Assembly: GCF_008065095.1 (NCBI RefSeq)
Contig: NZ_CP042911.1
Location: 4,410,001-4,442,000, forward strand
Source: Gemmata obscuriglobus
Lineage (GTDB): Bacteria > Planctomycetota > Planctomycetia > Gemmatales > Gemmataceae
Length of the DNA: 32,000 bases
Direction: 5' to 3'
In this document: positions 7,998 to 30,854 of the stretch, in pieces
Numbering within the stretch: the stretch's first letter is position 1
How the letters are laid out: the number at the start of each line of letters is the position of its first letter
Translations under genes and position numbers: made by a program
The notes under the pieces: generated by a model
What the model was told of the DNA's origin: nothing
Databases searched by the model: none
Seen by the model: the letters and a program-made list of their open reading frames with translations, nothing else

Positions 7998-9680
7998 ATG
8001 CCCGGCGCCGCCACCCAGCCCCGCACCGCGACCCAGCCCCGCTACTACATGCTCCGCGACGTGAACCTGTTCGCGTCGGGGGTGTACCGCGGCCGGCGCT
8101 GGTTCCCGCACTGGGTGCGGAACATGGCCGAGGCCGGGCGCAAGCTCGGCCCGGGCGGCGCGAAGCTGCACACCCCGCCAGCGGCCCCCGGGCACGAGGA
8201 CGACGAGGGGTGGCGCGAGTTCGTCCCGACCGACGAGCCCGCGGCCGGGTGGGTCGACCCCAACAGCCTCCGCGCCGTCCCGGACCCGCAGCACGCGGGC
8301 CACGTGATCCTCAAGGGGAACGTGGTCAACGTGCCCGAGGCGATGGCCCGGAAGATCGAGAGCGGCGAGTACCGGTTCGGCTCGGCCGAGATCTACGACT
8401 CGTTCCTCGACGACTTCGGCCGCAAGTACGGCAAGGTGCTGCGCAAGTTCAGCTACCTCGGCGGCGAGGTGCCCCAGGTGAAGCGCCTGGGGCCGCTCCC
8501 GCGGCCCGAGCCGATGCCCGCGCCGATGCGGTTCAGCGAGCGCCCCGGGGTGCGGATCCGGGAGCACACCGTCCGGGGCCGCCGCGGCGCCCTGATCACC
8601 TTCGCGGAGACGAGCAGAATGGACCGCCAGTCGATGATCGCCGCGATCCAGGCGGACATGCCCGGGATCAGCCAGTCCACCCTCGACGCGATGACCGACG
8701 AGGCACTCGCGGACCTGGTCAAGAACCTCCCCACCGGGGCCGGAACTCCGACGCCGCCGGCGAACCCCGCCCCCGCGCCGGCCACCGGGATGTTCGCCGA
8801 GCCGAGCCGCGAGGAGATGATCGCCGCCCTGGTGGACGAGGGCGAGGACGCGGCCGAGCTCGAGGGGATGAGCGACGAGGAGCTCGGCGCCCTGTACGAG
8901 GAAGTGATCGGCGAAAGCACCGAGACCGAGGGCGAGGGCGAGGAACCCGTTGAGACGATGGCGGACCCGGCGGCCGTGACCCGCGAGGAGATGATCGCGG
9001 ACCTGGTGGCGCAGGGGCAGGACGCGGCCGCGCTCGACGCCATGCCCGACGACCAGCTCCGCGCCCTGTACGCCCAGCTCACCGCCGACCCGCCCGCACC
9101 GCCCGCGGCCCCCGCGCCGGCCCCGGCCGCCGTCCCGATGAGCGAGCCGCGGCGCAAACCCAGGCCCAAACCCGCCACCCGCAGGGGCGTCACCGTGAAC
9201 AGCGAACTCGCGATCAAGGCGAAGCGGCTGAACGCCGCGTTGGACAACGAGTTGTCTCGGCTCCGCGTCAGCAACGAGCGGCGGAAGCGCGACGACGCGA
9301 CGAAGTTCTGCGACCAGCTCGTCTCCGAGGGCCGGGCCACCCCGGCCCAGGTGACGGCCGCGTACCTGCCGCTCTTGCTCGGGCTCGACGACACCCGGGC
9401 CGTCCACCGGTTCACCGAGAACGGCCGGACCCGCAACCTCACCGCCTACGAGGCCCGCAAGGCCCAGCTCGCGCAGATGCCGGTGACGGTCAAGTTCGGC
9501 GAGCGGTTCGCCGCCGGCCCGCCCGCCGGCGAGTTCAGCGGCGAGGCCGAGCTGGCCAAGGTGAAGCAGTTCGCCGCCGCGGCCGTGCCCGAGTCCCACC
9601 GCGAGCAGTACGTGACCAGCTTCGCCGAGCTGCAGAAGAAGAAGCCGCGGATCACGGCCAAGGAGTACGGGGCGCGCTGA
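7998..9680 (+). CDS. Mu gpI-like prohead protease/scaffold protein, with an acidic repeat-containing scaffold-like C-terminal half
   Basis: Position between MuF and the major head gene. The N-terminal block ...KIESGEYRFGSAEIYDSF...LRKFSYLGGEVPQVKRLG resembles the Mu-like prophage I protein as I remember it. The C-terminal half is acidic and helical, with three about 35-aa repeats (R-E-E-M-I-A-x-L-V...L-x-A-L-Y). A nested in-frame scaffold product, as in Mu I/Z, is possible. Confidence 0.7.
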   Translation: MPGAATQPRTATQPRYYMLRDVNLFASGVYRGRRWFPHWVRNMAEAGRKLGPGGAKLHTPPAAPGHEDDEGWREFVPTDEPAAGWVDPNSLRAVPDPQHAGHVILKGNVVNVPEAMARKIESGEYRFGSAEIYDSFLDDFGRKYGKVLRKFSYLGGEVPQVKRLGPLPRPEPMPAPMRFSERPGVRIREHTVRGRRGALITFAETSRMDRQSMIAAIQADMPGISQSTLDAMTDEALADLVKNLPTGAGTPTPPANPAPAPATGMFAEPSREEMIAALVDEGEDAAELEGMSDEELGALYEEVIGESTETEGEGEEPVETMADPAAVTREEMIADLVAQGQDAAALDAMPDDQLRALYAQLTADPPAPPAAPAPAPAAVPMSEPRRKPRPKPATRRGVTVNSELAIKAKRLNAALDNELSRLRVSNERRKRDDATKFCDQLVSEGRATPAQVTAAYLPLLLGLDDTRAVHRFTENGRTRNLTAYEARKAQLAQMPVTVKFGERFAAGPPAGEFSGEAELAKVKQFAAAAVPESHREQYVTSFAELQKKKPRITAKEYGAR

Positions 9681-9741
9681 GCCCCGCCGCCGGTGCCGGC
9701 GCCCGCACCCCTCCGACCACCACTTAACCGGGAGCGATCCT

Positions 9742-10515
9742 GTGGCCAACGCAACCGACCGGGTCAAGAAGCGCGTCGTCCGCATCCAGGACCGGTTCAT
9801 CCGCCGGTCCTCGGAGACGCTGGGCGCCGCCACCCGGTACTACCAGCACGCCCTCGTCGGCACCGACGTGACCGGGTACCTGTGCAAGGGCGACGACAGC
9901 CAGTCCTGGGTGTTCGCCGGCGTGGTCCGGGGCAACGAGGGGAACCCGCTGCTCCCGGCCGGCACCGCCGGGACCCCCGAGCTCGACCTCGACATCGAGA
10001 TGCCGTACCGGCTCGAGGTGTCGATCGCCGGGGTGGCGGTCACCGACCTCGGCAAGAAGGTGTACGCGCTCGACGACCAGACCGGCACCCTGAGCGCCGC
10101 GGCCACCACGTTCGGCAACTTCATCGGCCACGTGGTCGAGATCGTGGCCCCGGGCATCGCGCTGGTCGAGCTGTGCTACGACGGGGTCGCCGCGCACGCC
10201 CGGTACGGCGTCACCCGGGTGCTGGCCGCGACCGGCGCCCAGAGCCTCACCCGGTGCGACCTGAACAAGGTCATCATCGTCCCCAACACGGCGGCGTACA
10301 CGATCACCCTGCCGGCCGTGGCCGACACCCAGGCCGGGGACCGGCTCACGTTCGTCAAGACCACCGCCGACGCGGCCGCCGCGACCCTCGACGGGAACGC
10401 CGCCGAGACCATCGACAACGGCGCCACCCTGGCGACCATCGACGCCCGCTACGACTGCGCCGAGCTGGTCTCGACCGGCACCGAGTGGGTCGTGCTGAAC
10501 CGCGACATCGCGTAA
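9742..10515 (+). CDS. Putative head decoration/cement protein (DUF2190-like N-terminal half plus an extra beta-rich C-terminal domain)
   Basis: GTG 9742 with GGGAG upstream. Located between the scaffold and major head genes. The N-terminal pattern VFAGVV...LEVSIAGVAV...GKKVYALDD...GNFIGHVVEIVAPGIALVEL resembles DUF2190-type cement proteins, from memory. Confidence 0.55.
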   Translation: MANATDRVKKRVVRIQDRFIRRSSETLGAATRYYQHALVGTDVTGYLCKGDDSQSWVFAGVVRGNEGNPLLPAGTAGTPELDLDIEMPYRLEVSIAGVAVTDLGKKVYALDDQTGTLSAAATTFGNFIGHVVEIVAPGIALVELCYDGVAAHARYGVTRVLAATGAQSLTRCDLNKVIIVPNTAAYTITLPAVADTQAGDRLTFVKTTADAAAATLDGNAAETIDNGATLATIDARYDCAELVSTGTEWVVLNRDIA

Positions 10516-15802: not shown

Positions 15803-16678
15803 ATGGCGGACAAGGTCGGCGTGTTCAACCGCTTGCTGTACGCCGGCTCCGGCGTTACCACGGCCACGCACGAGTTCGAGTTCCTCGAAGGCTCGACGCT
15901 GGGCCTCTCTGAGAACTTCATCGACACGAACGGCATCCGGGGTACCCGCTCGCACAGCTCCGAGCGGGTGCGGCGCGGGACCCGGCGGGTCGACGGCCAG
16001 ATCATTCTGGCCCCGACGCCGGTCGAGCTCGCCGTCTGGCTGCCGCTGATCCTGGGCGGCACGCCCTCGGGCACGAGCTACCCGCTCGGCGAGAACCTGC
16101 CGCTGTTCAACCTGTTCGGCGTGCGGGACGGGACCGTGTACACGTACTCGGACTGCGTCGTCACGAACGCGACGTTCAGCGCGTCCGAGGGCGGCCCGAT
16201 GCAGCTGTCGCTGACGATCATCGGCAAGGACGAGACCCAGTCCGGCTCCGCCGGCGCCGCGACCATCGACCTGACCACGCAGCCGTTCGTGCTGCACGAC
16301 GCGGTGGTGTCGGTGGGCGGCTCGAACCGCGAGGTGGCGAGCTTCTCGCTCGCGATCGACAACGTCGTCGAGGCCAAGTTCCGCAACTCGGCGACGATCA
16401 CCCAGCTCAAGGCCACCGACCGCAACGTGACCGTCGACCTGCCGGTGAGCCTCGGGACCGACGCGGCGCTGTACGGCTCGGCCGTCGGGGGCGTGGCCAC
16501 GACGCTCACGCTCACCAACGGGGGCTGCTCGCTGACCTTCTCCATGACCAAGGTGCAGGCCCCGAAGCAGCCGCTCCCGTTCGGCCAGCGGGGCATTCTG
16601 GACCTGCCCTGGCGCGGCGTCGCCCGCAAGGACGGCGCCACGCCGGAGCTCACCACCACACTGGACAGCACCCCATGA
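15803..16678 (+). CDS. Putative major tail (tube) protein, siphovirus type
   Basis: It sits directly upstream of the G/GT chaperone pair and the tape measure. It is beta-rich and 291 aa long, with an N-terminal pattern THEFEFLEGSTLGLSENFIDTNGIRGTRS...VDGQIILAPTPVEL reminiscent of phage tube proteins. No sheath gene is present. Confidence 0.6.
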   Translation: MADKVGVFNRLLYAGSGVTTATHEFEFLEGSTLGLSENFIDTNGIRGTRSHSSERVRRGTRRVDGQIILAPTPVELAVWLPLILGGTPSGTSYPLGENLPLFNLFGVRDGTVYTYSDCVVTNATFSASEGGPMQLSLTIIGKDETQSGSAGAATIDLTTQPFVLHDAVVSVGGSNREVASFSLAIDNVVEAKFRNSATITQLKATDRNVTVDLPVSLGTDAALYGSAVGGVATTLTLTNGGCSLTFSMTKVQAPKQPLPFGQRGILDLPWRGVARKDGATPELTTTLDSTP

Positions 16679-17028: not shown

Positions 17029-17402
17029 GCCTGCACCCCCGAATCGCCGCCCGCGCGTGCGACGACTGCCGGCACTGGTGGTACGACGAGCGGGGCGAGG
17101 TGGTCACCCGCGGCGGCCAACCGCTCCGCCGGCCCAGGGGCTCGCACCCGCCCTGCGGCAAGTGCCCCAAGGTGCCGGCCGGGACCGAGCGCCCGTCGCC
17201 GGCGGAGGCCGTCGAGCTCACCGACCAGCACCGCCGGACCGTGCGGTTCTACCGCGAGTGCCGGGCGGTCGGCCGGTTCCCCGACGACCCGCTCGTCCGC
17301 TGGGCCGCCGCGGTCATCCGGTCCGCCGAGGACCACTGCGAGCGCGTGTCGAGCCAGCGGACCCAGCTCGCGGTCCTGTCCGCGCTCCGAGGTGACACGT
17401 GA
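16675..17402 (+). CDS. Tail assembly chaperone -1 frameshift fusion (lambda gpGT analogue): 16675..17004 joined to 17004..17402
   Basis: The slip at G_GGA_AAC moves into the frame of track ORF 16848..17402, reading ...EAEGK/LWWGVRLLSLHPRIAARACDDCRHWW.... That frame has no ATG/GTG start before its first CxxC. It ends in a GTGA overlap with the tape measure start at 17399. Confidence 0.7.
16998..17004 (+). promoter_or_regulatory. Programmed -1 ribosomal frameshift slippery heptamer G_GGA_AAC
   Basis: The X_XXY_YYZ pattern is in the zero frame of 16675..17028 (GAG GGA AAC). Lambda G/GT uses G_GGA_AAG. The position between the tube and tape measure genes is the conserved location for this recoding event. 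Confidence 0.75.
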
Positions 17403-19186
17403 CCCCGGCCCAAAAGCAACTCGAGCTGCGCCTCAAGGTCACGGCCGACGTGGCCGACGCGCAGCGGAACCTCCAGCAGCTCGCGACCGCCGCCCAGCAG
17501 ACGCACGGCCGGGCCGCCGGCCCCCAGGGCTTCGGCGGCTACGTTCCGCCGCCCGGCTTCGGGGCGCCGGGGCAACCGCCGGCCCCGGCGGCGGGCGGCG
17601 CGGTGCCGCGCCCCGGCCCGTTCACCTCGGCGGTGCCGGCGTTCGACCGCCCGGTCCCGGTGGTGATCGTCGGGCCGAAGCCGCTGCACGTCACCGGAAC
17701 GGGCGGCGCGGGTGCCGGCCCCGGGGGCGGGGCCGGGGGCAAGAGCGCGGGCGACAAAGAAAAGGAGCGGCACGAGGCGCTGCTGACCTCGTTGCGGAAC
17801 CTCCAGCTCGGGGGAACCGTCGGACGGTACGAACAGATCAAGGGGTTCGGCGAGGCCGCGGGCAAGCTCGGCCTCCCCGGCGGGGCGCTGCTCGGCCGCC
17901 TGGCCGGCCCGGCGGCGATCGCCCTGGGCGCGCTGCAGGTGGCGGGCGACGCCGGGGAGATCCTCAGCGACGAGTACACGACCGGCGAGCAGAAGGGCCG
18001 GGCGGCGGTGCGGAAGTTCGTCCCCTTCGGCGAGACCATCCAGAGCTCGATCGACGGGCTGACCGGGCGCAAGGCCGGGATGGAGCGGGCCGAGGTGGAC
18101 TACCAGAAGCAGATGGCCGAGGTGAGCGCGCGGGCCGAGAAGGCGTCGTTCGACCTGGGCTACCGCCCCGAACAGGCCGGGTACGAGGCGCGCGAAACGC
18201 TGCTCGCCCGCGCGACACCGATCCTGGAGGGGGCGAGCGACCGCACCACCGCCGCCGGCGAGAAGGCGTTCCGGGACCGGCAGCGGCTGCTGCCGATCGA
18301 GCGCGAGGAGGCGAAGCTCCAGCGCGAGGCGGCCGTCGCCACCGCGCAACGCGCCAGCGCCGAGGCGGCGCTGGGCGACATCCAGGCCAAGCGGGCCGAG
18401 GCGGCGCGGCGCGAGCAGCAGAAGGGCCGGGAGCTGGGGGGCGACGGCCGCCCGCTCCTGCCGACCGCGGTTTCGTTACTGGCCTTCGGGCCGGTGACGC
18501 ACGCGCTCTTGGGGGGCCGGGGGACGTACGACGCGAACCAGTCCGGCGTGTCCCGCCAGCGCACCCTGTACGAGCAGGCGGCGGCGGGGGCCGAGGCGCA
18601 GCAGCTCGGCGAGCTCGAGAAGCAGGCCCGCCGCGCGGTGGTCGAGGCCCGCCGCCGGGAGGCCGAGACCGGGCGATCTGCCGGACAGGCCCGAGTGCAG
18701 CGCCTCCAGGCCGAGGCCGACATCCTTGATGGGGACGCCTCCCAGGCGGCCTCGGGCGCGCAGTCGCTCGGCGGAATGGATCGCTTCTCACGTGCGAACG
18801 CCGTGCGCTCGCTGCAGCTGCTGCAGCAGTTCGGCCCGGAGCGGATGAGCCCCCGCGAGCTGGCCGAGGCGCGCGCGGTCGCCCCACAAACGGTGGCGAA
18901 GATCCTCGAGCAGGCGGGCAAGCAGACGCCCCAGTTCGACGCCCTCCGCGCGCTCGCGCCCGCGGACTACGCCGGCGACCCGGAAGAACTGCGCCGCAAA
19001 GCGCAGGAGAAGCGCGACGAGGCCGCCCAGAAGGAGCTCGACCTCGATCGCACCCTTGCGACCAAGGTCGCGGCGGCCGGGCGCGACCTCGGCAAGTACA
19101 TCGGCGACATCATCGACCAGATCGCCGACGAGATCAAAAAAGGGATCGACCGCGACAAGCGGATCGGACGGGGGGCCAGCAGCTAG
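17399..19186 (+). CDS. Tape measure protein (595 aa)
   Basis: It follows the G/GT pair. It is long, Ala/Gly/Arg/Glu-rich and helical, with Gly-rich tracts. The rule of thumb of about 0.15 nm per residue predicts a tail of roughly 90 nm. Confidence 0.8.
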   Translation: MTPAQKQLELRLKVTADVADAQRNLQQLATAAQQTHGRAAGPQGFGGYVPPPGFGAPGQPPAPAAGGAVPRPGPFTSAVPAFDRPVPVVIVGPKPLHVTGTGGAGAGPGGGAGGKSAGDKEKERHEALLTSLRNLQLGGTVGRYEQIKGFGEAAGKLGLPGGALLGRLAGPAAIALGALQVAGDAGEILSDEYTTGEQKGRAAVRKFVPFGETIQSSIDGLTGRKAGMERAEVDYQKQMAEVSARAEKASFDLGYRPEQAGYEARETLLARATPILEGASDRTTAAGEKAFRDRQRLLPIEREEAKLQREAAVATAQRASAEAALGDIQAKRAEAARREQQKGRELGGDGRPLLPTAVSLLAFGPVTHALLGGRGTYDANQSGVSRQRTLYEQAAAGAEAQQLGELEKQARRAVVEARRREAETGRSAGQARVQRLQAEADILDGDASQAASGAQSLGGMDRFSRANAVRSLQLLQQFGPERMSPRELAEARAVAPQTVAKILEQAGKQTPQFDALRALAPADYAGDPEELRRKAQEKRDEAAQKELDLDRTLATKVAAAGRDLGKYIGDIIDQIADEIKKGIDRDKRIGRGASS

Positions 19187-20064: not shown

Positions 20065-20219
20065 GCGCAGGTCGCTCCGGTGCGGGCGCACGCACCGGCG
20101 GCGGCGGCCCGCGCGCCGTCCCGCCCCTCACTCTCACACCGGGGTATTGGACCCGATCGGCTGCGTTGCGCCAAGGGGTTCCGGGGTCAGGGGTTGTGGC
20201 GGGTGGGCGCCCCGCGCAC

Positions 20220-22230: not shown

Positions 22231-24441
22231 GTGGCCCTCGAACTCGGCCAGAGCGCGAGCTGGCCCGGCGTCGCCGCCGTGGAGAGCTGCACGGGCACGG
22301 TCTCGCACGGGATCACGCCCGGCGTGTTCGTCATGTCGACGTACCCGCAGACCGCGGCCCCGCGCGCGTTCGGCGACCTGGTGCTGTCCGACGGGGTGCG
22401 GGCGGCGGTGTTTCGCGGGTGCAAGCTGGACGCGGTCAGCGGGCGCGCCGGGCCGGACGGGCAGACGTTCACGCTCACCATCCTCGACCGGCGGTGGCGG
22501 TGGCGGTACGGGGCCATCTCCGGGCGGTACAACCAGCTCGACAAGCGCGGCAAGCTGGTCCCGTGGACGATCCGCAGCCCGCAGGAGCTCGCCGAGCTGT
22601 GCCTGAAGGCGATGGGCGAGCGGAACTACGTGATCAACCTCCCCGCGGGCCTCACCGCGGCGGCGGGCGCGAACCTGGAACAGTACCTCCGGGCCGGCGA
22701 GGACTTCCCGCAGAGCCTGACGAACCCGCCCACGGTGTGGGACCTGATCCCGCCGGCGGAGGCCCTCGCGCGGCTCGCCGACCTGTACGGGTGCCGGGTG
22801 ATTTATCAGCCGTTCGCGGACCGCGTGGTGGTGGCCCCGCTGGGCGCCGGCGGGCCGCTCACGGACTTCCCGTGCGAGTCGATCGCCCCGAACGTGGACG
22901 GCCCCGAGACGCCGTCCGCGGTGGGCGTGGCGGGCGCGCCGGTGCGGGTCCAGATGCGGCTCCTCCTGGAGCCCGTGGGCAAGGAGTGGGACGGCAGCTA
23001 CCGCCCGGTGAACGAGCTGAGCTACGCCCCGCAGGGCGGCGGAAAGGTGCAGATCTCCACCGCCGCGTACGACGGTGCCGGCCCCAACCCGTCGATCAAG
23101 GTCTACCTGCGGTTCAACCGGGACTGGGCCGCGCCCGCACCCCTGCCCGACAAGGCGGTGTTCGCCCAGTTCGGGTCGTCGGCGGCGGGCAGCGCTGCCG
23201 ACAAGCTGGCCGACGTGGCGGCGGCGATCAACGGGCACCCGGACTGCGCGCCGGTCCTGAAGGCCGAGGCCGCCGGCGACGTGCTGACGGTCACGGGGCT
23301 GGCCCAGGGGTTCCCGTTCGAGCTCGAGGCCGAGTCCAGCAGCCCCGGCCCCCCGGACCGGTTCGAGGCGGCGGTGGTGCAGCCCCCCGAGCGGCCCGGC
23401 CCCAACTGGGAGAGCTGCCCGCTGCCCAACTTCCCGGCCGTCCGCGCCACCGACCGGCTCAGCTACGATCAGGCGGTGCTCCTGGCGCAGGGGAGCGTGT
23501 TCAAGTGCTACCGGGTGCTGAACGCCGACGCGGAGACGGGGCGCCCGCCGATCCGCGTGCCCGGGTACGGCGGGCTGGTCCGCCGGCACCAGCTCACCCT
23601 CCAGCCGACGAAGGTCGACCAGGTGGCCCCGGAGCCGCGCGAGAAGGGCGTGATCCGCCGGGTGCCGAACGTGGACGAAGCGATCCGCGGTCCGCTTGGC
23701 GGACTGCCGGAGTTTTACGACGGCTACAGTCGCGACCAGGGCGCGGACGTGTACGGCAGCGTCTGGAAGCTGCTCGGTAACGTGGTCTGGGACGGGGACC
23801 GGCGGGAGGACAACACCGGCCCCGAGGACAAGGTGTACGTGCCGATCGCGGAGATCGACCCCATCTCCCAGGTCGTCACCTTCACCGATTACGTGTACCG
23901 GTACGCGATCGTCGCCGGCACCGACGTGCGGCAGGCCTTCCCGACCCTGACCCTCGAAACCGCCGTCCTCGTGTCGGTCTCGGACACGGGGGAACTGGTC
24001 CGCGCGAAGTACACGGCCAAGCTCGGCGGCGCGGCGCCCGTGGAGTGGCAGATCCGCGAGGACGTGCAGCTGTGCGTCCGCGGGCGGTACGGGCCGAAGA
24101 ACAAGTACCTGGGGCGCGAGTGGGTGGACCAGAAGGAGGCCGAGGCCCGGGCCGCGTACTACCTGGCCGGGATGGCCCACCGGTACCGGGTGACCGGGGG
24201 CGAGACCCGGCAGTACATAGGCATCCACCTGATCAACCTGGACGGGCACGTGCAGCAGGTGAGCTGGAGCGTCGGCCCCGGCGGCGCGTCCACCGTCGCC
24301 AGCACCAACAGCGAGCACAGCGCCAGCGTCCCCCCGTACGCGGCCCGGCGCCGCGCCGAGAACCTGCCGCCGGACAAGTCGGCGGCGCTGGCCAACTTCT
24401 TTGAGGAGGAGCGGGCCGGGCGCCTGCTGCCGCCGCGATGA
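22231..24441 (+). CDS. Large tail tip/hub protein (736 aa)
   Basis: GTG 22231 lies 1 nt after the previous stop, with AGGA upstream. It is the largest distal tail gene. Its ATGA overlap couples it to the next gene. No family verified. Confidence 0.65.
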   Translation: MALELGQSASWPGVAAVESCTGTVSHGITPGVFVMSTYPQTAAPRAFGDLVLSDGVRAAVFRGCKLDAVSGRAGPDGQTFTLTILDRRWRWRYGAISGRYNQLDKRGKLVPWTIRSPQELAELCLKAMGERNYVINLPAGLTAAAGANLEQYLRAGEDFPQSLTNPPTVWDLIPPAEALARLADLYGCRVIYQPFADRVVVAPLGAGGPLTDFPCESIAPNVDGPETPSAVGVAGAPVRVQMRLLLEPVGKEWDGSYRPVNELSYAPQGGGKVQISTAAYDGAGPNPSIKVYLRFNRDWAAPAPLPDKAVFAQFGSSAAGSAADKLADVAAAINGHPDCAPVLKAEAAGDVLTVTGLAQGFPFELEAESSSPGPPDRFEAAVVQPPERPGPNWESCPLPNFPAVRATDRLSYDQAVLLAQGSVFKCYRVLNADAETGRPPIRVPGYGGLVRRHQLTLQPTKVDQVAPEPREKGVIRRVPNVDEAIRGPLGGLPEFYDGYSRDQGADVYGSVWKLLGNVVWDGDRREDNTGPEDKVYVPIAEIDPISQVVTFTDYVYRYAIVAGTDVRQAFPTLTLETAVLVSVSDTGELVRAKYTAKLGGAAPVEWQIREDVQLCVRGRYGPKNKYLGREWVDQKEAEARAAYYLAGMAHRYRVTGGETRQYIGIHLINLDGHVQQVSWSVGPGGASTVASTNSEHSASVPPYAARRRAENLPPDKSAALANFFEEERAGRLLPPR

Positions 24442-26111
24442 GCGACCGCACCGACTGGGTCCCGCTGTCGAACGCCTCGGGCGGGCCGGTGCCGTCGTGC
24501 GCCCTCGCGCGGGTGACGGGCGTCGCGAACGGGCTGTTCACGGTCGACACGCCCGACGCCGACGGCGACCCGCACCTGGTGGCCGTCGGGTTCTCGCTCG
24601 TCCCCACGGGCGGCCGGGGCACGGGCACGTTCGACCCGCGCGCCGTCCTGGCGTACGAGGAGGCCGACGGCACGCCCCAACCGGGCGAGGAGTGGGGTGC
24701 GGGCGCCGGCACCTGGAAGCTGCGGAAGGGCAAGACGGGGTGGCGCATCCTGGGCGGGGCCGGGCGCGGGCTGGTGAACGCGGTGCGGGCGTGCTGCGGC
24801 ACGACCACGACCACAACGACCGCCGCGCCCACCACCACCGCCGGCCCGTGCGCCGGCGCGTGCCAGTGGACCTACTCCGCCTCATCGAAAGCCTGGACCC
24901 GCACCGCCTCCACCTGCGCCGCCGGCTGCGCCTGCCTCGCCCCGACGTGGTGCCCGGGCGCCGACGCCTGCGCCACCACCGCGTGCGGCCGCCTCGCCGC
25001 CGACGCCAAGGCGCCGAACTGCACCGGCGCGACCACGACGGGCGGCCCGTGCCCGGCCCCGGCGGACTGCGCCGAGGGGTGCGACTGGTTCTGCCACCCG
25101 GTCCGCGGGTGGGTGCAGACGCGCAACGGGTGCGCCGGCTACTGCGGCTGTCAGCCGCCGGCCGGGGCGTGCTCGTCCTGTGCGCCGGCACACACCCCGT
25201 GCGTGGTGCCGCCGTCGTTCTGCAACGGTGGGTGCCGCTGGGTGTGGGTGTCGGGGGTGGCGGGCGAGAGCGACCGCTGGGAGAAGATTGGCGACACCTG
25301 CGCCGGCTCGCGCGTGCCCAACTGCTCCTGCGACGCGCCGGCCGCCCCCGGGAACTCTTGTGGTCACGAGGCCGCCACCCGCTGCTACGTCCACGGCGCC
25401 GCCGACCCGTGCGCGGCGGTGACCACGTCATCGCCCGCCGGGTGCGGCGACTGCATCTGGGGCTCGGACAGCGGCACCGCTTGGGACAAGGTGGTGCGGC
25501 CGTGCGGGAACGCCGGCGGGTGCTCGTGCCAGGTGCCGCCCGGCGCCCCGTCCGGCACCTGCGCCCAGGCGGCCGGGGCGTGCGTGCCGCTGCCCGTCAC
25601 CACGACGGCCGCGCCGACCACCACCGCCGGGCCGCCCACCACGACAACGACCACCACCACCGCGCAGCCGTTCTCCTGCTGGCAGTGCCGGTACCAGGGT
25701 TTCGTCCGCTTCGTGTGCACGGGCGAACCGGGCCACCCGTGCGAGAATTACGAGACCCCGACCCTGCGGTCGCAGTTCCCGTCCGAGGTCGCGTGCACCA
25801 ACGGTTGCGGCCCCGGCGGCGGCACGACGGCGGCGCCGACCACGACCACCAGCACCACCACACCCGCGCCGACCACCACCACGGGCGGCCCGGCGGTGGA
25901 CTACTACTGCTGCCAGTGCCCCGGGGGCGTGGCGCGGTGCTCCTTCGATCCGATTAACCAGTGCGCGGGCTGTACGGTCACGGGGCCGATGTCCCTGGCG
26001 TCGTGCAACGGCACCTGCGCGGGCGCGGGAACGACCACCACACCGCCGCCGCCGCCGCCGCCGCCGCCACCGCCCGTAACCACCGGGCTCAGCACCAGCA
26101 GCCCGTTTTGA
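24438..26111 (+). CDS. Cysteine-rich (about 50 Cys) distal tail protein with poly-Thr/Pro mucin-like linkers. Candidate receptor-binding/fibre protein.
   Basis: ATGA coupling to the tail tip gene. There are four about 35-aa CxGxCxW...W...CxxxCxC modules (aa 138-385). Thr-rich linkers are TTTTTTTAAPTTTAGP, TTTAAPTTTAGPPTTTTTTTT and TTAAPTTTTSTTTPAPTTTT. The C-terminus is TTTT-P11. Confidence 0.7.
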   Translation: MSDRTDWVPLSNASGGPVPSCALARVTGVANGLFTVDTPDADGDPHLVAVGFSLVPTGGRGTGTFDPRAVLAYEEADGTPQPGEEWGAGAGTWKLRKGKTGWRILGGAGRGLVNAVRACCGTTTTTTTAAPTTTAGPCAGACQWTYSASSKAWTRTASTCAAGCACLAPTWCPGADACATTACGRLAADAKAPNCTGATTTGGPCPAPADCAEGCDWFCHPVRGWVQTRNGCAGYCGCQPPAGACSSCAPAHTPCVVPPSFCNGGCRWVWVSGVAGESDRWEKIGDTCAGSRVPNCSCDAPAAPGNSCGHEAATRCYVHGAADPCAAVTTSSPAGCGDCIWGSDSGTAWDKVVRPCGNAGGCSCQVPPGAPSGTCAQAAGACVPLPVTTTAAPTTTAGPPTTTTTTTTAQPFSCWQCRYQGFVRFVCTGEPGHPCENYETPTLRSQFPSEVACTNGCGPGGGTTAAPTTTTSTTTPAPTTTTGGPAVDYYCCQCPGGVARCSFDPINQCAGCTVTGPMSLASCNGTCAGAGTTTTPPPPPPPPPPPVTTGLSTSSPF

Positions 26112-26140: not shown

Positions 26141-28639
26141 ATGAGCAGCCCGCTGACGATCGGCATGGCGACCCGGGGCGAGCCGGACCACGTGTGGTTC
26201 GTGCTCTCGGCCCTGGCCGCGAACCACCCGCGGGTCGAGTACCTGGTGGTGGACAACACCCCGGAGCGGGACCCGCGGGTGGAGGCGATCACCCGGGCCG
26301 TCGGCGGCCGGTACCTGCACCGCCCGGACCTCACCGGTACGTCCAAGCCCCGGGACGCCGTGTTCCGGTTCGCCCGCACCCCGTGGGCCGTGTGCCTCGA
26401 CAGCCACGTGATTCTGGAAACGGGCGCGGTGCAGGCGGCCCTCGACTTCGCGGCCCGGAACCCGGACTCGCGGGACATCGTGTCCGGGCCGCTGGTGTAC
26501 GACGACGGCCGAGGGCTGAGCACACACTGGAAGACGAACCCGGGCGGCGGGTTGTGGGGCACGTGGGACACGGACCCGCGCGGCGCGGATCCGGCGGGCG
26601 AGCCGTTCGAGATCCCCATGATGGGCCTCGGGCTGTGGCTGATGCGGACCGCGGCGTGGCCCGGGTTCCACCCGCTGTTCAACGGGTTCGGGGGCGAGGA
26701 GGGGTACGTTCACGAGGTGGTGCGGCGCCGCGGGGGCCGGGCGCTGTGCGTGCCCGGGCTGCGGTGGCGGCACAAGTTCCGGGACGTGTCCGGCTGGCAC
26801 AACAACCCGCCGCCCCCGTACCCGCTCCGCACCGAGGACCACGTGTGGAACCTGCTGGTCGGTCACCGGGAACTCGGCATTGAGGCGGACCAGCAGATCC
26901 GCGAGCACTTCGGGAAGAACCTGGGGGCGGACACCTGGGACAGACTCGTCAAGACCGCGGCGCACGTTCAGCCCCTTGACGGCCCCCGTCCGGGTCCAAC
27001 GCGGCAGCGCATACTGGCCCTGTGGTACAGCGATAACAGCGCCCCGGACCCCCTCCTCATGCGCTCGCTTCAGTCCGTGATTGACGCCCGGGAGCAGACC
27101 ATCCGGCACGACGTGACCGTCAGCGCGTGCGCCTGGGAGATCGGCGGGAACCTGGGCATTCTCCCGAGCGTGAACACCCCCGGGATCATGCTCCGGAGCT
27201 TCATCGGGGCGCGGAAGCGGGGCTATAACACGATCCTGGCCCAGATCCGGCAGGCGGTGGCCCATGCCACCGCTTCGGGCGAGGAGTACGACGCGGTCGC
27301 GTTCTGCGAGCACGACGTGCTGTACCCCCCGGGGTACTTCGACCGGCTCGGGGACGCCCTCGCCGCGCACCCGTCGGCCCCGGTGGTGTCGCACCGCGAT
27401 TACATCGGCCTCAGCGGCACCGGCTGGCAGCGGGTGCGTGAGCGACACGAGCCCCTGCACCAGCTCTGCCTCCGCTGGGACACGATCCAGAGCAACCTCG
27501 CGCGAGCCGAACGTGAGGCGGCGAGCGGCGCGGCGGTGGTGCTTGAGCCGGACCATGAGGCCGATCGGTCCGCCTGGGCGCGGCTGGAGCCCGCCGACCC
27601 CGCGGGCATGAGTGGCACTCCGAGTGTTCACGTCAATCACAATGCCGGCCGGTTCACGGCGCACGGGGACGTGTGCTACGAGCCGCGCGGCGCGTCCCTG
27701 TGGCACCCGCACTGGGGTGAGGCGCGGCACTGGTGGCCCGGCCCGATGGTCACGGTGTCGAACGTGGACGTGACGCAGTTCAAACCCGAGAAGCCGGCCG
27801 GGTGCTCGGCGTGCGAGGCGAACGCGCACCCGACCCCGGAGGCGTGGGCGCGGGCCGCCGCGGCGAAGCCGTCCGACTTTCACGAGCACGTGGGCACTCT
27901 CCGGGAACTGGCGGCGAAGTGCTCGAGCGCTGCGGAGCTGTCGCTGTGGATGAAGCCGGCGGACGCGGCGATCGTCGCCGGCCTCCCGGCCGACGGCACG
28001 TTCGTGAGCGTGTGCCCACGCGCGAAGCCGCAGTGGGAGCGCATGAAGGGCTGGCTGGGGGCGCGGTTCGAGGGCCGCACGGCCGACCCGGCGACCGCGG
28101 ACCTGCCCCCGGTGGACCTGCTGTTCATCGACACCGAGCACACCGCCGACGCGCTCATGCCCCTGCTGGAGCGGCACCGCGAGCGGGTGGCGAAGTACAT
28201 CGCGGTCCACTGCACCGAGACGTTTGGGGAGAGCGGCGACCGGCCCGACGCCCCGGGCGTGCTGCACGCGCTGCGAACCTTCTGCCACCGCCACCCGGGC
28301 TGGGTGGTGAAGCGCCGCGACCGGAACAACCACGGGCTGATAGTTCTGTCGCGGTGCGCCGAGGACGTGAGGGCGAAGCCGGCGCTGTGGCGCCAGGCGA
28401 TGAACTACACGGCGGCGATGGCGCGGCACGTGGCGGACGGGCGCCGGACGGTGCCGCTGGACGTGCTGGAGGCGCGGCAGGCCGAGTGCGCCCTGTGCGA
28501 GGAGCGGGCGCTGGACGCGTGCGCCGCGTGCGGCTGCCCGCTGGAGGCGAAGCTGCCCCTCGCAACCGAATCGTGCGGGCTGGTGAAGAAGGGGCAGGCG
28601 CCGAAGTGGGGGGCGTGGCCCGCGGGCGCGGCCGCGTAA
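26141..28639 (+). CDS. Multi-domain glycosyltransferase (832 aa): N-terminal GT-A/GT2-like domain, a second GT-A-like region, a class-I-methyltransferase-like region and a C-terminal Cys cluster
   Basis: N-terminus: IGMATRGEP...YLVVDNTPERD...AVCLDSHVIL...IPMMGLGLWLMR...FGGEEGY (GT2 layout with a D-S-H metal motif at 26399-26407). Middle: ALWYSDNS...AFCEHDVLYPPGYF. Then VDLLFIDTEHTADALMPLLE...IAVHC, which is Methyltransf_24-like although the Gly-rich SAM loop is not obvious. The end is CALCEERALDACAACGCP. Confidence 0.8.
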   Translation: MSSPLTIGMATRGEPDHVWFVLSALAANHPRVEYLVVDNTPERDPRVEAITRAVGGRYLHRPDLTGTSKPRDAVFRFARTPWAVCLDSHVILETGAVQAALDFAARNPDSRDIVSGPLVYDDGRGLSTHWKTNPGGGLWGTWDTDPRGADPAGEPFEIPMMGLGLWLMRTAAWPGFHPLFNGFGGEEGYVHEVVRRRGGRALCVPGLRWRHKFRDVSGWHNNPPPPYPLRTEDHVWNLLVGHRELGIEADQQIREHFGKNLGADTWDRLVKTAAHVQPLDGPRPGPTRQRILALWYSDNSAPDPLLMRSLQSVIDAREQTIRHDVTVSACAWEIGGNLGILPSVNTPGIMLRSFIGARKRGYNTILAQIRQAVAHATASGEEYDAVAFCEHDVLYPPGYFDRLGDALAAHPSAPVVSHRDYIGLSGTGWQRVRERHEPLHQLCLRWDTIQSNLARAEREAASGAAVVLEPDHEADRSAWARLEPADPAGMSGTPSVHVNHNAGRFTAHGDVCYEPRGASLWHPHWGEARHWWPGPMVTVSNVDVTQFKPEKPAGCSACEANAHPTPEAWARAAAAKPSDFHEHVGTLRELAAKCSSAAELSLWMKPADAAIVAGLPADGTFVSVCPRAKPQWERMKGWLGARFEGRTADPATADLPPVDLLFIDTEHTADALMPLLERHRERVAKYIAVHCTETFGESGDRPDAPGVLHALRTFCHRHPGWVVKRRDRNNHGLIVLSRCAEDVRAKPALWRQAMNYTAAMARHVADGRRTVPLDVLEARQAECALCEERALDACAACGCPLEAKLPLATESCGLVKKGQAPKWGAWPAGAAA

Positions 28640-28648
28640 ACGCAAAAA

Positions 28649-28678
28649 GCCCCCGGCGGGATCTCTCCCGCCGGGGGC
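28649..28678. terminator. Bidirectional terminator hairpin between convergent genes
   Basis: Perfect 13-bp stem GCCCCCGGCGGGA / TCCCGCCGGGGGC with a TCTC loop. An A5 run precedes it (a T-run for the - strand) and a T-containing tail follows it. It starts 10 nt after the stop at 28639. Confidence 0.7.
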
Positions 28679-28691
28679 TCTCGTATGGAAT

Positions 28692-28969: not shown

Positions 28970-28976
28970 CCCGTCC

Positions 28977-29040
28977 CTCCCTTGACTCCCCGTTGCTGGA
29001 CTTGTCACCAGCGTTCCACCGCGGAACGGTCGGGTTAAGG
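28977..29040 (-). repeat. Leader type A, copy 1
   Basis: A 37-nt block is identical to 30763-30799 (CTCCCTTGACTCCCCGTTGCTGGACTTGTCACCAGCG). It is followed by a hairpin whose stem differs from copy 2 by two compensatory pairs, then GGTCGGGTTAAGG. Confidence 0.7.
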
Positions 29041-29062
29041 GCCGGGGCCACAAGGCCCCGGC
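29041..29062. terminator. GC hairpin GCCGGGGCC-ACAA-GGCCCCGGC
   Basis: Perfect 9-bp stem 4 nt downstream (in - sense) of the stop of 29067..29399. Confidence 0.5.
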
Positions 29063-29399: not shown

Positions 29400-29523
29400 G
29401 AACGGCCCTCCGTCGACAGGAACCCGGCTCTGCGTTGCACGGGCTGGCCACCGTTCCCCGGCCCGCGCCGGGGAGCCGCATTACGGCCCCGCGGCCCCGG
29501 GAAACCGGGGCCGCGGCGGGCGC
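29400..29523 (-). repeat. Intergenic module type B, copy 1
   Basis: Blocks: CTCTGCGTTG (29428-29437); CACGGGCTGG; perfect 8-bp palindrome 29455-29462/29467-29474; GCCGCATTA (29475-29483); 12-bp hairpin 29489-29500/29505-29516 with a GAAA loop. Confidence 0.65.
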
Positions 29524-30396: not shown

Positions 30397-30518
30397 CTGA
30401 AAACCTCCGTTCGTTCACCCCCCTCTGCATTCGCTCCGGGCTTGGGACCGGCGCCGCGGCGCGTGCCGCGGCGGCTGCATTACGGCCCGCGGCCCCCGGG
30501 TTCGGGGGCCGCGTCGGG
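30397..30518 (-). repeat. Intergenic module type B, copy 2
   Basis: Blocks: CTCTGCATTC (30423-30432); CTCCGGGCTTGG; perfect 9-bp palindrome 30452-30460/30465-30473; GCTGCATTA (30474-30482); 10-bp hairpin 30489-30498/30503-30512. Confidence 0.65.
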
Positions 30519-30755: not shown

Positions 30756-30762
30756 GAGCAGC

Positions 30763-30828
30763 CTCCCTTGACTCCCCGTTGCTGGACTTGTCACCAGCGC
30801 CCCACCGTGGGGCGGTCGGGTTAAGGGC
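30763..30828 (-). repeat. Leader type A, copy 2
   Basis: See copy 1. The hairpin here is CGCCCC-ACCGT-GGGGCG (30798-30814), against CGTTCC-ACCGC-GGAACG (29012-29028) in copy 1. Confidence 0.7.
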
Positions 30829-30854
30829 CGCGGCCCCGGTTTCCCGGGGCCGCG
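30829..30854. terminator. GC hairpin CGCGGCCCCGG-TTTC-CCGGGGCCGCG
   Basis: Perfect 11-bp stem 4 nt downstream (in - sense) of the stop of 30859..31107. It has the same stem as the hairpin at 29489-29516, with the loop in the opposite orientation. Confidence 0.55.

Follow-up and report, generated by a model that had tools for sequence, protein, structure and literature searches.

A four-domain glycosyltransferase gene linked to a threonine-linker tail-fibre gene in a Gemmata obscuriglobus prophage points to possible self-glycosylation of the fibre

The tail operon of a Gemmata obscuriglobus prophage ends in the gene of an 832-aa, four-domain enzyme, and in related phages this enzyme is found together with a tail-fibre-like protein carrying poly-Thr linkers, which suggests that the phage sugar-coats its own fibre. 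We put the probability that the enzyme O-glycosylates these linkers, in the cytoplasm, at about 0.6. The analysis was performed on 32,000 nt of contig NZ_CP042911.1 (assembly GCF_008065095.1, positions 4,410,001 to 4,442,000 of the forward strand), called the window below; all coordinates are relative to it.

The presumed acceptor is encoded at 24438..26111 (+) as a Cys-rich protein of 557 aa with 14.4% Thr, 9.2% Cys and 11.3% Pro, and is the sole protein of such Thr/Cys composition in the window. An earlier note on this DNA had proposed that the gene beside the enzyme supplies poly-Thr tracts, and ten runs of at least three Thr (the longest of 8) could indeed be counted in it. Based on Thr-run composition, three linkers were delimited on the + strand, namely linker 1 (GTTTTTTTAAPTTTAGP, 24798..24848), linker 2 (TTTAAPTTTAGPPTTTTTTTTA, 25599..25664) and linker 3 (GPGGGTTAAPTTTTSTTTPAPTTTTGGPA, 25809..25895), and a TTTT followed by an 11-Pro run is present at the C-terminus (26028..26075, +). 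The poly-Thr runs are encoded by mixed ACN codons, as seen in linker 2, which argues for selection at the protein level. Neither a Pfam family nor a transmembrane segment was found in the fibre protein. Its ATG overlaps the stop codon of the preceding gene (ATGA), a tail-module gene of 736 aa at 22231..24441 (+) that served as query for the control phages (alignment A5, loci L031-L045); further upstream, the tail tube gene was identified at 15803..16678 by a PF18906 match. The first 117 aa of the fibre (24438..24788, +) form an N-terminal anchor domain common to the fibres of relatives without the enzyme. By tblastn it was detected in L031, L032, L033, L036 and L042 with 35-49% identity, directly after the homologue of 22231..24441.

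The enzyme gene (26141..28639, +, stop included) starts with an ATG at 26141, in agreement with where 48 homologues begin in the alignment, and ends with the stop codon at 28637-28639. As the earlier note had stated, it lies directly downstream of the mucin-like tail protein, on the same strand and 29 nt from the fibre gene. No hairpin is present in this 29-nt gap. Folding revealed a perfect 14-bp, G+C-rich inverted repeat at 28648..28679 (+), 9 nt past the enzyme stop, with -35.1 kcal/mol and a z-score of -4.2 (0 of 200 shuffles as stable). This terminator-like hairpin could mark the end of the operon, and the two genes are probably co-transcribed, the enzyme gene being the last one of a late (tail) operon.

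The product is 100% identical to P0001, a 'glycosyl transferase family 2' protein of G. obscuriglobus. The features of its sequence exceed chance expectation by far, since the enzyme belongs to a conserved family with 275 relatives in the database and its motifs fall in invariant columns of an alignment of 49 family sequences. All features picked out before (the ORF, D-S-H, AFCEHDVLYPPGYF, VDLLFIDTEHT, IAVHC and the Cys cluster) were recovered in place. The AF2 model of the full-length enzyme (pLDDT 92.1) is composed of two GT-A domains (D1 and D2), a methyltransferase fold (D3) and a Cys cluster (D4). No transmembrane segment could be detected in the enzyme (the top 19-residue hydropathy mean is 1.28), which is predicted to be a soluble, cytoplasmic protein; that enzyme and fibre both have no such segment speaks for fibre glycosylation.

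D1 (aa 1-285, 26141..26995, +), delimited by Pfam, Foldseek and a D1 profile, is a GT-A domain with a helical extension. Glycos_transf_2 (PF00535) was found on aa 7-166 (E 5e-14, 52.9 bits against a cut-off of 23.3) and in 49 out of 49 homologues, and the GT-A fold was seen in the AF2 model, which matched GT-A structures of the PDB by the hundred. The metal-motif position, at the end of strand 82-87, is occupied by a DxH motif replacing DxD, D87-S-H89 (26399..26407, +), of which D87 and H89 are invariant in the 49 sequences; the GT2 layout with D-S-H claimed for this domain is thus borne out. Further on, F183-G-G-E-E-G-Y189 (26687..26707, +; F183, G184, E186 and E187 invariant) is the counterpart of the WGGEN Gal/GalNAc-T motif, and aligned to WGGE(N/Q) of GalNAc-T7 and -T10 in HMMER. 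Glyco_transf_7C was not among the matches listed for the enzyme in a Pfam scan to E <= 1. The motif with the C-terminal metal-binding His and the phosphate-binding Arg, C203-VPGLRWRH211-KFR214 (26747..26782, +), has P205, W209 and H211 invariant and F213 and R214 kept in at least 90% of the 49 sequences, and aligned to VPCSRVGHIYR of GalNAc-T7 and -T10. The DSH itself aligned to the DSH of GalNAc-T10 in the profile search, and the three invariant residues D87, H89 and H211 each correspond to a residue of the D-x-H plus distal His Mn2+ site of GalNAc-T10/-T7.

In Foldseek, the single-domain PDB matches ranking first for D1 were ppGalNAc-T2, -T3, -T4, -T7, -T10 and -T12 and PGANT9, over about 305 columns with 18% identity and E about 1e-12. 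The suggestion that the DxH is like that of mucin-type GalNAc-transferases therefore gains the GGE and His-x-Phe-Arg alignments and these structural matches. In the D1 profile search, TarP (6H1J) scored E 7e-5 and GalNAc-T10 E 0.0055. TarP is the best PDB sequence match for aa 3-115, the N-terminal half of D1, and GalNAc-Ts are the only PDB sequences aligning across the DxH-to-His half. The TarP match, as well as the fact that Pfam sees a generic GT2 only, counts against fibre glycosylation.

D2 (aa 286-540, 26996..27760, +) gave neither a Pfam match nor a PDB sequence match. A D2-only AF2 model (pLDDT 94.7) was matched by Foldseek to WrtF, SpsA, GnT-I, heparosan synthase 2 of Pasteurella (PmHS2) and K4CP, the E. 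coli K4 chondroitin polymerase (E 1e-7 to 1e-4, TM 0.45-0.55), so that the second nucleotide-sugar-transferase-like region of the earlier note (AFCEHDVLYPPGYF, aa 386-399) is part of a real though divergent GT-A domain. This stretch contains the DxD equivalent of D2, E390-H391-D392 (27308..27316, +), which conservation and DSSP on the model place where strand 385-390 ends; of its residues, E390 and D392 never vary among the 49 sequences and H391 is kept in at least 90% of them.

The best structural matches of the full-length enzyme in Foldseek were two tandem GT-A co-polymerases, K4CP, which spans D1 and D2 jointly (568 columns, E 2.6e-15), and heparosan synthase 2 (508 columns). That a polysaccharide polymerase is the top match over D1 and D2 is a point against fibre glycosylation. 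Together with the matches of D2 alone to the same two proteins, it could indicate a bifunctional polymerase in which D1 and D2 make an alternating disaccharide polymer, either free (capsule-like, made during infection) or Thr-primed on the fibre, which in the latter case would become proteoglycan-like. We consider this improbable, as the low TM (0.2-0.28) and high rmsd (about 19 Å), at 13-15% sequence identity, imply that the match reflects two tandem GT-As and not a common arrangement. Moreover, no UDP-sugar dehydrogenase or export genes are located nearby in the window, and a free polymer would leave the association with the Thr-linker fibre unexplained.

D2 and D3 are joined by a low-confidence linker (pLDDT <50 for aa 541-557) with a C555-x2-C558 pair (27803..27814, +; C555 invariant, C558 in at least 90%). 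D3 (aa 565-748, 27833..28384, +) is a class-I methyltransferase-fold domain of the Methyltransf_24/CmcI-like type, with a Rossmann-type strand-helix alternation over aa 596-737 (DSSP), BFVD matches including 'cephalosporin hydroxylase' and methyltransferase proteins, and an hhalign probability of 99.9% to the stand-alone protein of L044. As for the Methyltransf_24-like segment proposed before (VDLLFIDTEHT, aa 658-668, and IAVHC, aa 686-690), the fold stood, but the family match on aa 648-685 (PF13578) remained below threshold (16.4 bits, cut-off 26.3), with 6 of 49 relatives matching at E <= 0.01, and the SAM-binding residues are replaced. The D3 motif D659-LLFID664-TEH667 (28115..28141, +) has L661 and D664 invariant and D659 and H667 in at least 90% of the sequences. 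At the motif I position, E599-LSLWMKPA607 (27935..27961, +) is non-canonical in comparison with L044 and L029. The stand-alone (L044) and rearranged (L029) proteins carry EFG....ST and then an acidic residue past strand 2 (SYD/SFD), whereas the clade of the window enzyme carries E-x-S-x-W-x-K-P-A and ...SVC, by which the two glycines of motif I are replaced, as is the acidic residue. With these residues replaced, the claim that a single polypeptide adds and methylates sugars is weak, and we regard it as doubtful, though possible, that D3 methylates anything. In some relatives, a canonical Methyltransf_24 is encoded by a gene of its own.

D4 (aa 749-832, 28385..28636, +) is a helical C-terminal domain that matched phrog_13558 over aa 762-815 (E 5.5e-5). 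DUF6171 was matched by 15 of the 49 family members, the window protein not being among them at E <= 0.01, and a PDB sequence search with D4 gave no significant match (top RBX1, E 0.2). The terminal CxxC...CxxCxC cluster described earlier is real: all six Cys of C783-x2-C786 ... C794-x2-C797-x-C799 ... C812 (28487..28576, +) are invariant in the 49 sequences, and the cluster is probably Zn-binding.

For the co-occurrence of enzyme and fibre, 23 enzyme-bearing loci (36-86% enzyme identity, GC 52-73%) were compared with 14 control phage loci sharing the tube, 20166, 20997 and 22231 tail genes without the enzyme. This check, suggested in the earlier note, was strongly positive: a Thr-linker, Cys-rich protein is encoded upstream of the enzyme in 21 of the 23 loci, against a Thr-linker fibre in none of the 14 controls, five of which retain the fibre N-terminal anchor. 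Fisher's test gave p = 2e-8, a value that is not phylogeny-corrected and overstates the association because the loci are phylogenetically non-independent. In 17 of the 23 loci the gene immediately before the enzyme encodes this protein, which has 3-9 Thr linkers and a Cys content of 5-11%, while L003, L019 and L005 have one or two extra genes, one of them sugar-modifying, between the Thr-linker gene and the enzyme (Methyltransf_24 in L019 and L003, GT2 in L005). L048, counted among the 21, contains the Thr-linker coding DNA in a broken ORF. The gap between fibre and enzyme is 1-65 nt in ten other loci, and the Thr-linker composition persists where the fibre sequences have diverged past tblastn detection. 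No upstream Thr-linker protein was found in L029 and L052, both with variant enzyme architectures, which counts against fibre glycosylation.

The order of structural-module genes in phages is conserved by descent and the enzyme-bearing loci could all be one planctomycete phage lineage, in which case the enzyme might be an unrelated moron, for instance for glycosylation of DNA or small molecules, inherited beside the fibre gene without a functional link. This is very unlikely, as phages whose other tail genes interleave in similarity have either both the enzyme and the Thr-linker block or neither. The 22231 protein of L031, without the enzyme, is 45% identical to that of the window, compared to 35% for L022/L034 with the enzyme, which indicates that the pair is gained or lost as a module. 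In addition, the sole exceptions have rearranged enzyme architectures, and no DNA-modification genes or defence-family matches were found nearby. T4 DNA glucosyltransferases are GT-B and not GT-A enzymes, which also speaks against a DNA-modification role.

A serious rival to fibre glycosylation, although an unlikely one in our estimate, is receptor masking or seroconversion. The enzyme would then alter the host surface glycan (for example LPS, a surface glycoprotein or a polymer of capsule type) bound by the Cys-rich fibre modules, lysogens or infected cells would cease to adsorb the same phage, and enzyme and fibre would co-vary through the common receptor. A distal fibre part co-varying with a glycosyltransferase is equally expected here, and in P22-, Sf6- and epsilon15-like phages tailspike specificity does vary along with the O-antigen-modifying genes. 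However, the tracking feature is the poly-Thr linker composition and not one conserved receptor-binding fold. The enzyme gene is the last of a prophage tail operon, a frequent site of conversion genes, and in L049 it is adjoined downstream by excisionase and integrase genes, a position typical of lysogenic conversion that also counts against fibre glycosylation; against this, the 1-65 nt spacing and a hairpin only past the enzyme gene suggest late co-expression. A 92-kb phage contig (L047) with ribonucleotide reductase and dCTP deaminase genes hints weakly at a lytic lifestyle, for which conversion would be of little use. TarP, the best sequence match for the N-terminal half of D1, is a prophage wall-teichoic-acid GlcNAc-transferase and the two-GT-A arrangement is typical of polysaccharide-acting enzymes, but D1 is specifically near the protein-acting GT27 enzymes, and the enzyme has no membrane anchor.

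Under fibre glycosylation, the reading we prefer, the enzyme would be a phage-encoded cytoplasmic multi-step glycosyltransferase with the phage's own tail fibre as substrate. The data show the domain folds, the conserved motifs, the operon-like linkage and the joint occurrence of the enzyme and Thr-linker fibres; what we infer is which acceptor and donor are used, in what order the steps run and how the phage benefits. D1, as a Mn2+-type GT-A that, like the polypeptide GalNAc-transferases, has a D-x-H...H metal triad, GGE and H-x-F-R, would transfer the first sugar from a UDP-sugar to Thr hydroxyls of the poly-Thr/Pro/Ala linkers, and D2, with its E-H-D motif, would add a second residue to it. 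D3, given its degenerate SAM site, and the Cys cluster D4 would more likely be binding or scaffold modules than a second chemistry. The product could be stiff, protease-resistant, mucin-like glycosylated linkers carrying the Cys-rich modules of the fibre.

Among the known systems, polypeptide GalNAc-transferases (CAZy GT27; human GalNAc-T2 2FFU, T10 2D7I, T7 6IWQ) share with D1 the GT-A fold, D-x-H, GGE and His-x-Phe/Tyr-Arg, and the presumed acceptor of the enzyme is likewise a Thr/Pro/Ala-rich mucin-like sequence. The identity is only 14-19%, however, and D1 is fused to a second GT-A that follows it directly, a methyltransferase-fold domain and a Cys cluster. The enzyme has no ricin-type lectin domain (no Ricin_B_lectin match), signal anchor or type II membrane (Golgi) topology, and is cytoplasmic in a bacterial/viral setting; true ppGalNAc-Ts have both a lectin domain and a membrane anchor, and their absence here counts against fibre glycosylation. 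TarP, a wall-teichoic-acid beta-1,3-GlcNAc-transferase, is also a prophage-encoded soluble GT2, but the likeness is confined to the general nucleotide-binding half, and TarP carries a DxD motif, a trimerisation domain and a polymer acceptor, with no paired Thr-rich virion protein. K4CP and PmHS2 have two GT-As per chain as well, but show low TM and 9-15% identity to the enzyme, which has DxH instead of DXD in D1, two further domains and a gene located in a phage tail operon, not in a capsule locus. In the serine-rich-repeat adhesins of streptococci and staphylococci, long Ser/Thr-rich repeats of a surface fibre are O-glycosylated stepwise in the cytoplasm by GtfA/B and accessory GTs, dedicated enzymes encoded beside the substrate gene as in the fibre-enzyme pair; that system has no connection with phages, is initiated by a GT-B enzyme and acts on a bacterial adhesin that leaves the cell by an accessory Sec system.

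PBCV-1 A064R is a virus-encoded GT-GT-methyltransferase that glycosylates the capsid protein of PBCV-1 (PMC9614988). Like the enzyme, it is a soluble cytoplasmic viral protein with two GT domains followed by a methyltransferase-type domain, in the same order. A064R builds its glycans on a virion protein (PMC9614988), whereas for the enzyme a virion acceptor is presumed. The glycans that A064R elongates are N-linked and sit on the major capsid protein of a virus of eukaryotes. Its first domain is a GT-A with DXD, the second falls into another, new GT family, and its methyltransferase domain is active, unlike D3 with the degenerate SAM site. The likeness is one of shared folds and domain order; a 638-aa chlorovirus protein was matched in BFVD (E 5e-11) with poor global superposition (TM 0.16-0.20). 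According to PMC12363180, which cites Freeman et al. 2023, and PMC13313380, virions of mycobacteriophages Che8, Corndog and Myrna are glycosylated by phage enzymes, so that phage glycosyltransferases act there on the phage's own structural proteins. The targets reported there are actinophage capsid proteins (PMC12363180), while here they would be the tail-fibre poly-Thr linkers of a planctomycete phage. A tblastn search of the enzyme against 50,697 GenBank phage records gave no match at E <= 1e-5, and so no detectable sequence relationship to the actinophage enzymes of the Che8 gp110 type.

Self-glycosylation of phages and viruses is already known, and the enzyme with its poly-Thr-linker fibre would be a further form of it. 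In a more speculative version, to which we give little credence, D1 would prime the linker Thr, D1 and D2 would co-polymerise GAG-like disaccharide-repeat chains on it, and D3 and the Zn module would hold the acceptor much as the lectin domain does in animal GalNAc-transferases, resulting in a proteoglycan-like fibre. If this were true, a cytoplasmic relative of the machinery that initiates mucins and proteoglycans in eukaryotes would exist in bacterial viruses.

Positions 1-28639 of the window carry, on the + strand, a phage structural module. Its products include a portal domain matching phrog_21 (E 1e-94), one Mu-F-like head protein and one protease/capsid-like protein, together with the tail tube protein (15803-16678, PF18906); several tail genes have no family assignment. 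The last three genes of the module encode a 736-aa protein (22231-24441), a 557-aa tail-fibre-like protein (24438-26111, the fibre) and an 832-aa enzyme (26141-28639). Gemmata obscuriglobus has a protein of the same length, annotated as 'glycosyl transferase family 2', with which the enzyme ORF shares 100% identity; no NCBIfam family was found for any of the three. The first two are joined by an ATGA overlap, while the gap between fibre and enzyme measures 29 nt and is free of hairpins. By repeat search and folding, a hairpin with a perfect G+C stem of 14 bp was detected 3' of the enzyme stop codon (28648-28679; z -4.2, -35 kcal/mol); the genes beyond it have the opposite orientation, so that the enzyme gene appears to close a late tail operon. 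No sigma-70-type promoter was found by consensus scan, and a consensus terminator scan returned one site only, within the upstream gene and no more than in shuffled sequences; both consensuses are uninformative for Planctomycetes.

Some further features of the window, which has a G+C content of about 73%, were recorded. An ORF of at least 1361 aa (4-4089, +, third-codon-position G+C 0.97), open at the left window edge, matches the portal family (phrog_21) in its last ~375 residues alone, with no Pfam or PHROG match for the ~960 N-terminal residues. Most of the window lies at a G+C content of 0.71-0.79, which falls to 0.60-0.65 in the segment 13001-16000, tail tube gene included. ARAGORN reported a 'tRNA-???' whose anticodon has four bases (17524-17619, +); it lies within ORF 17399-19186 and is probably a false positive. 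A 74-nt direct repeat (28976-29049 and 30762-30835, 92% identical) spans the 5' ends of two small minus-strand ORFs, resembling a leader or promoter common to both, and near-identical, terminator-like G+C-rich palindromes (29489-29517, 30487-30513 and 30828-30854) are situated just 3' of three minus-strand genes.

An earlier note, made from the sequence alone, had proposed virion O-glycosylation by the enzyme. All enzyme features listed in it were found in place by translation and by alignment of homologues (49 full-length sequences, 38-70% identity): the D-S-H motif (26399-26407, +), the stretch AFCEHDVLYPPGYF (aa 386-399), the segment VDLLFIDTEHT...IAVHC (aa 658-690) and the terminal Cys cluster (C783-x2-C786...C794-x2-C797-x-C799...C812). 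Invariant in this alignment are D87, H89, G184, E186, E187, W209, H211, E390, D392, D664 and all six C-terminal Cys, with H391 near-invariant. The AlphaFold2 model based on the same alignment (mean pLDDT 92.1) consists of four domains, D1 to D4 from the N- to the C-terminus, and contains a disordered segment at aa 541-557. Since no hydrophobic segment is present, the enzyme should be cytoplasmic and soluble. No relatives were found among 50,697 GenBank phage genomes, so there is no cultured phage model, and the phage group carrying the enzyme has no cultured representative.

D1 (aa 1-285) is a GT-A domain (Pfam PF00535, E 5e-14). Its first PDB structure match was K4CP, a two-domain polymerase, and the next 35 were all polypeptide GalNAc-transferases, including human T2, T4, T7, T10 and T12, Toxoplasma T3 and Drosophila PGANT9, with about 305 aligned columns at 14-19% identity (E 1e-12 to 1e-9). 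GalNAc-T7 was also the best PDB match of the whole enzyme by phmmer, and the D1 profile matched both TarP (E 7e-5, over the general nucleotide-binding half) and GalNAc-T10 (E 0.0055, over aa 60-216). In GT27 enzymes, structural work has established that the DxH pair and a distal His bind Mn2+ and that an Arg contacts the UDP phosphates. Because the corresponding motifs align between D1 and the GalNAc-transferases (DSH/DSH, FGGEE/WGGE, LRWRHKFR/SRVGHIYR), a GT27-type active-site signature is, on sequence grounds, located at invariant positions of D1. The resemblance to GalNAc-transferases first suggested by the DxH motif is thus borne out by structure matches and sequence alignments alike. Neither a lectin domain nor a membrane anchor was found in D1 or the rest of the enzyme, and the Glyco_transf_7C region was not reported for D1 by Pfam. 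As the lectin domain and membrane topology, two defining features of GT27, are missing, D1 is not filed as GT27 but as a GT2/GT-A enzyme whose active-site signature is GT27-like.

D2 (aa 286-540) had no match in Pfam and none by PDB sequence search. A separate model (pLDDT 94.7) is clearly GT-A, yet distant from every solved structure; the best structure matches were WrtF (E 1e-7, TM 0.45), SpsA (TM 0.54), GnT-I, heparosan synthase 2 and K4CP. With this fold and with E390-H391-D392 occupying the DxD position, the second nucleotide-sugar-transferase-like region suspected earlier is real. The enzyme could also be a K4CP-like polymerase, as its top structural matches would have it, but the TM-scores are low and these matches mainly reflect the tandem GT-A domains, and such a function is improbable. 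D2-like sequence around the EHDVLYP motif was also seen in unrelated bacteria (loci L008-L018; Patescibacteria, Gammaproteobacteria, Sphaerobacteraceae, Phycisphaerales and Bryobacteraceae) at 27-46% identity and over partial lengths, with the full domain in L008 only, which points to an uncharacterised, wider GT-A family.

D3 (aa 565-748) shows a seven-strand class-I methyltransferase topology in the model. Its Methyltransf_24 matches were sub-threshold and its structure matches were viral 'cephalosporin hydroxylase' and methyltransferase proteins, which speak weakly for a methyltransferase fold; PDB sequence searches with the D2, D3 and D4 profiles returned nothing significant. The homology of D3 to a protein of the related phage locus L044, 234 aa long and stand-alone, is unambiguous (hhalign probability 99.9%). 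The canonical motif I (EFG....ST) and the acidic residue after strand 2 are kept in this protein and in the rearranged enzyme variant of locus L029, whereas in the window's clade motif I reads E-x-S-x-W-x-K-P-A and the acidic residue is missing. Because both are replaced, methyltransferase activity of D3 is doubtful, and the suggestion that the same polypeptide also methylates is weakened, although the class-I fold itself is retained. D4 (aa 749-832) is a helical module that matches phrog_13558; DUF6171 was matched by 15 of the 49 homologues, and no significant solved relative was found. The invariance of its six Cys confirms the terminal cluster, and these residues together with C555 (invariant) and C558 in the D2-D3 linker suggest one or two Zn sites.

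The fibre, the presumed acceptor, is the sole window protein with poly-Thr tracts and contains 14.4% Thr and 9.2% Cys (51 Cys). Four segments scored as Thr/Pro/Ala/Gly linkers lie between Cys-rich modules that repeat roughly as C-x2/3-C..W..W..C..C-x-C, and near the C-terminus a Thr tract is followed by an 11-Pro run. No Pfam family was found for this protein or ten counterparts. Its T-P-A-P-T stretches (e.g. STTTPAPTTTT, aa 472-482) presumably resemble classic ppGalNAc-T acceptor peptides, which we take as a lead. All four ACN codons are intermixed in the poly-Thr runs, also in loci at 52-54% G+C, so that these runs are selected at the protein level; a chance or slippage origin is ruled out by the same mixture and by their persistence at this G+C content. 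For the fold of a Cys-rich fibre in a virion assembled in the cytoplasm, disulfides formed after lysis or metal binding were considered.

Co-occurrence of the two genes, a check named in the earlier note, was assessed in both directions. Species-representative genomes, viral contigs of IMG/VR and the assemblies in which individual homologues lie were the sources of loci with enzyme relatives, and 23 assessable loci, window counted, were left after removal of duplicate contigs. Enzyme identity ranges over 36-86% and G+C over 52-73%; among the variants are short (D1+D2), split and phosphatase-fused ones, and the named hosts are Gemmataceae and other Planctomycetes. A Thr-linker protein is encoded upstream on the same strand in 21 of the 23, counting L048, where the coding DNA is present with a broken ORF. 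Each of these proteins has 3-9 linkers rich in Thr, amounting to 32-144 residues, and a Cys content of 5-11%, and the spacing to the enzyme gene is usually 1-65 nt. In two Gemmata sp. prophages, L003 and L019, a canonical Methyltransf_24 gene (E 5e-13; 9418-9996 in L003/L021, 9427-10005 in L019) is inserted between fibre and enzyme; in L005, a Gemmata MAG, an additional small GT2 (9303-9935) and a further ORF are found there. Both exceptions, L029 and L052, have rearranged enzyme architectures. For the reverse direction, 15 phage loci were fetched via gene 22231-24441; they share homologues of the tail tube gene and of the tail genes starting at 20166, 20997 and 22231. Fourteen lack the enzyme, and a Thr-linker protein was found near the tail genes in none of them (0/14); L034, the remaining locus and the same contig as L022, carries both the enzyme and a Thr/Cys-rich fibre. 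The pairing thus stood up to the check (21/23 vs 0/14; Fisher p = 2e-8, uncorrected and overstating independence, as the loci are related). Synteny inherited without any functional link is disfavoured by the reverse test and is very improbable.

Five of the fourteen enzyme-less loci (L031, L032, L033, L036 and L042) keep the fibre N-terminal domain of ~110 aa at 35-49% identity, directly after the 22231 homologue. As the 22231 protein of the enzyme-less L031 is closer to that of the window (45% identity) than its counterpart in the enzyme-bearing L022 (35%), the distal Thr/Cys block of the fibre and the enzyme are, judging from these comparisons, gained or lost jointly as a module on a shared N-terminal anchor. 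Other sugar-enzyme genes follow the fibre in related phages without the enzyme and in L053, which has the short D1+D2 form only: a GT2+Rhamno_transf protein with the stand-alone D3 homologue (L044, 12979-16124), DUF5672 (L043, 5821-8886) and Glyco_transf_9 (L053, 8433-9362). In L031 (12181-18563), the fibre anchor is followed by a 29%-Ser ORF, after which come a protein of 667 aa, a sugar kinase (PfkB) and a protein with a methyltransferase domain; for the 667-aa protein a heptosyltransferase (GT9) role was considered, but Pfam gave no match and no claim is made. It may be general in this phage group that fibres are accompanied by exchangeable modification cassettes.

A glycosyltransferase acting on host glycans would likewise co-vary with the distal part of the fibre. 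The strongest rival is receptor masking, in which a prophage glycosyltransferase modifies the surface glycan of the host that the fibre recognises; the enzyme gene also occupies a place common for conversion genes, and its copy in L049 adjoins xis and int. Against this, the co-varying trait is linker composition and not a conserved binding fold, D1 is similar to protein-acting enzymes, and the enzyme is tightly coupled to the fibre gene, with a terminator-like hairpin only after the enzyme. Receptor masking is considered unlikely, if less so than the polymerase function. DNA modification or anti-phage defence, the former also raised earlier, found no support, as there was no PADLOC match, no DNA-metabolism neighbour in the window and a GT-A enzyme of protein-acting type.

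O-glycosylation of the fibre by the enzyme is the best-supported, though unproven, reading, with a probability of roughly 0.6; the proposed enzyme-substrate pair stands to that extent. From the observed folds, motifs, operon-like linkage and co-occurrence we infer acceptor, donor, order of steps and benefit as follows. The enzyme would be produced in the cytoplasm, late and along with the fibre; there D1 would transfer a first sugar from a UDP-sugar onto Thr hydroxyls of the fibre linkers and D2 would add a second. D3 and D4 may hold the substrate or organise the enzyme, and methylation may or may not occur. Mucins and fungal cellulase linkers are glycosylated, extended and protease-resistant; the glycosylated fibre linkers would be so too, displaying the Cys-rich modules.

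Virion self-glycosylation by virus-encoded enzymes is already known from chloroviruses, giant viruses and, among phages, a few actinophages, and the enzyme-fibre pair would add to it. Among the closest analogues in mode of working are the serine-rich-repeat adhesins, which are glycosylated in the cytoplasm. Others are PBCV-1 A064R, which combines two glycosyltransferase domains with a methyltransferase domain in one soluble viral protein and synthesises the glycans of the capsid protein (PMC9614988), and the virion glycosylation of mycobacteriophages Che8, Corndog and Myrna (Freeman et al. 2023, according to passages in PMC12363180 and PMC13313380). In the literature on phage Thr-rich fibre O-glycosylation, Gemmata prophages and bacterial GT27, no prior description of such a pair was found; proposed as new are that a tail fibre is the target, that its linkers are mucin-like, that the initiating domain resembles GT27 and that four domains are fused.

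Gemmata obscuriglobus can be cultivated and the two genes co-expressed, so the hypothesis lends itself to direct testing. The enzyme would be a compact, soluble four-domain candidate for O-glycosylating Thr-rich peptides in the bacterial cytoplasm, of use in glycoengineering, and the system would provide a bacterial or viral outgroup for the origin of GT27. The combination of enzyme and Thr-linker fibre would serve as a genomic rule by which glycosylated phage fibres may be found in metagenomes. If true, self-glycosylation would extend to phages of Planctomycetes and target tail fibres instead of capsids, in a mucin-type design: a DxH GT-A enzyme, most closely related among solved structures to animal polypeptide GalNAc-transferases, would glycosylate poly-Thr/Pro linkers.
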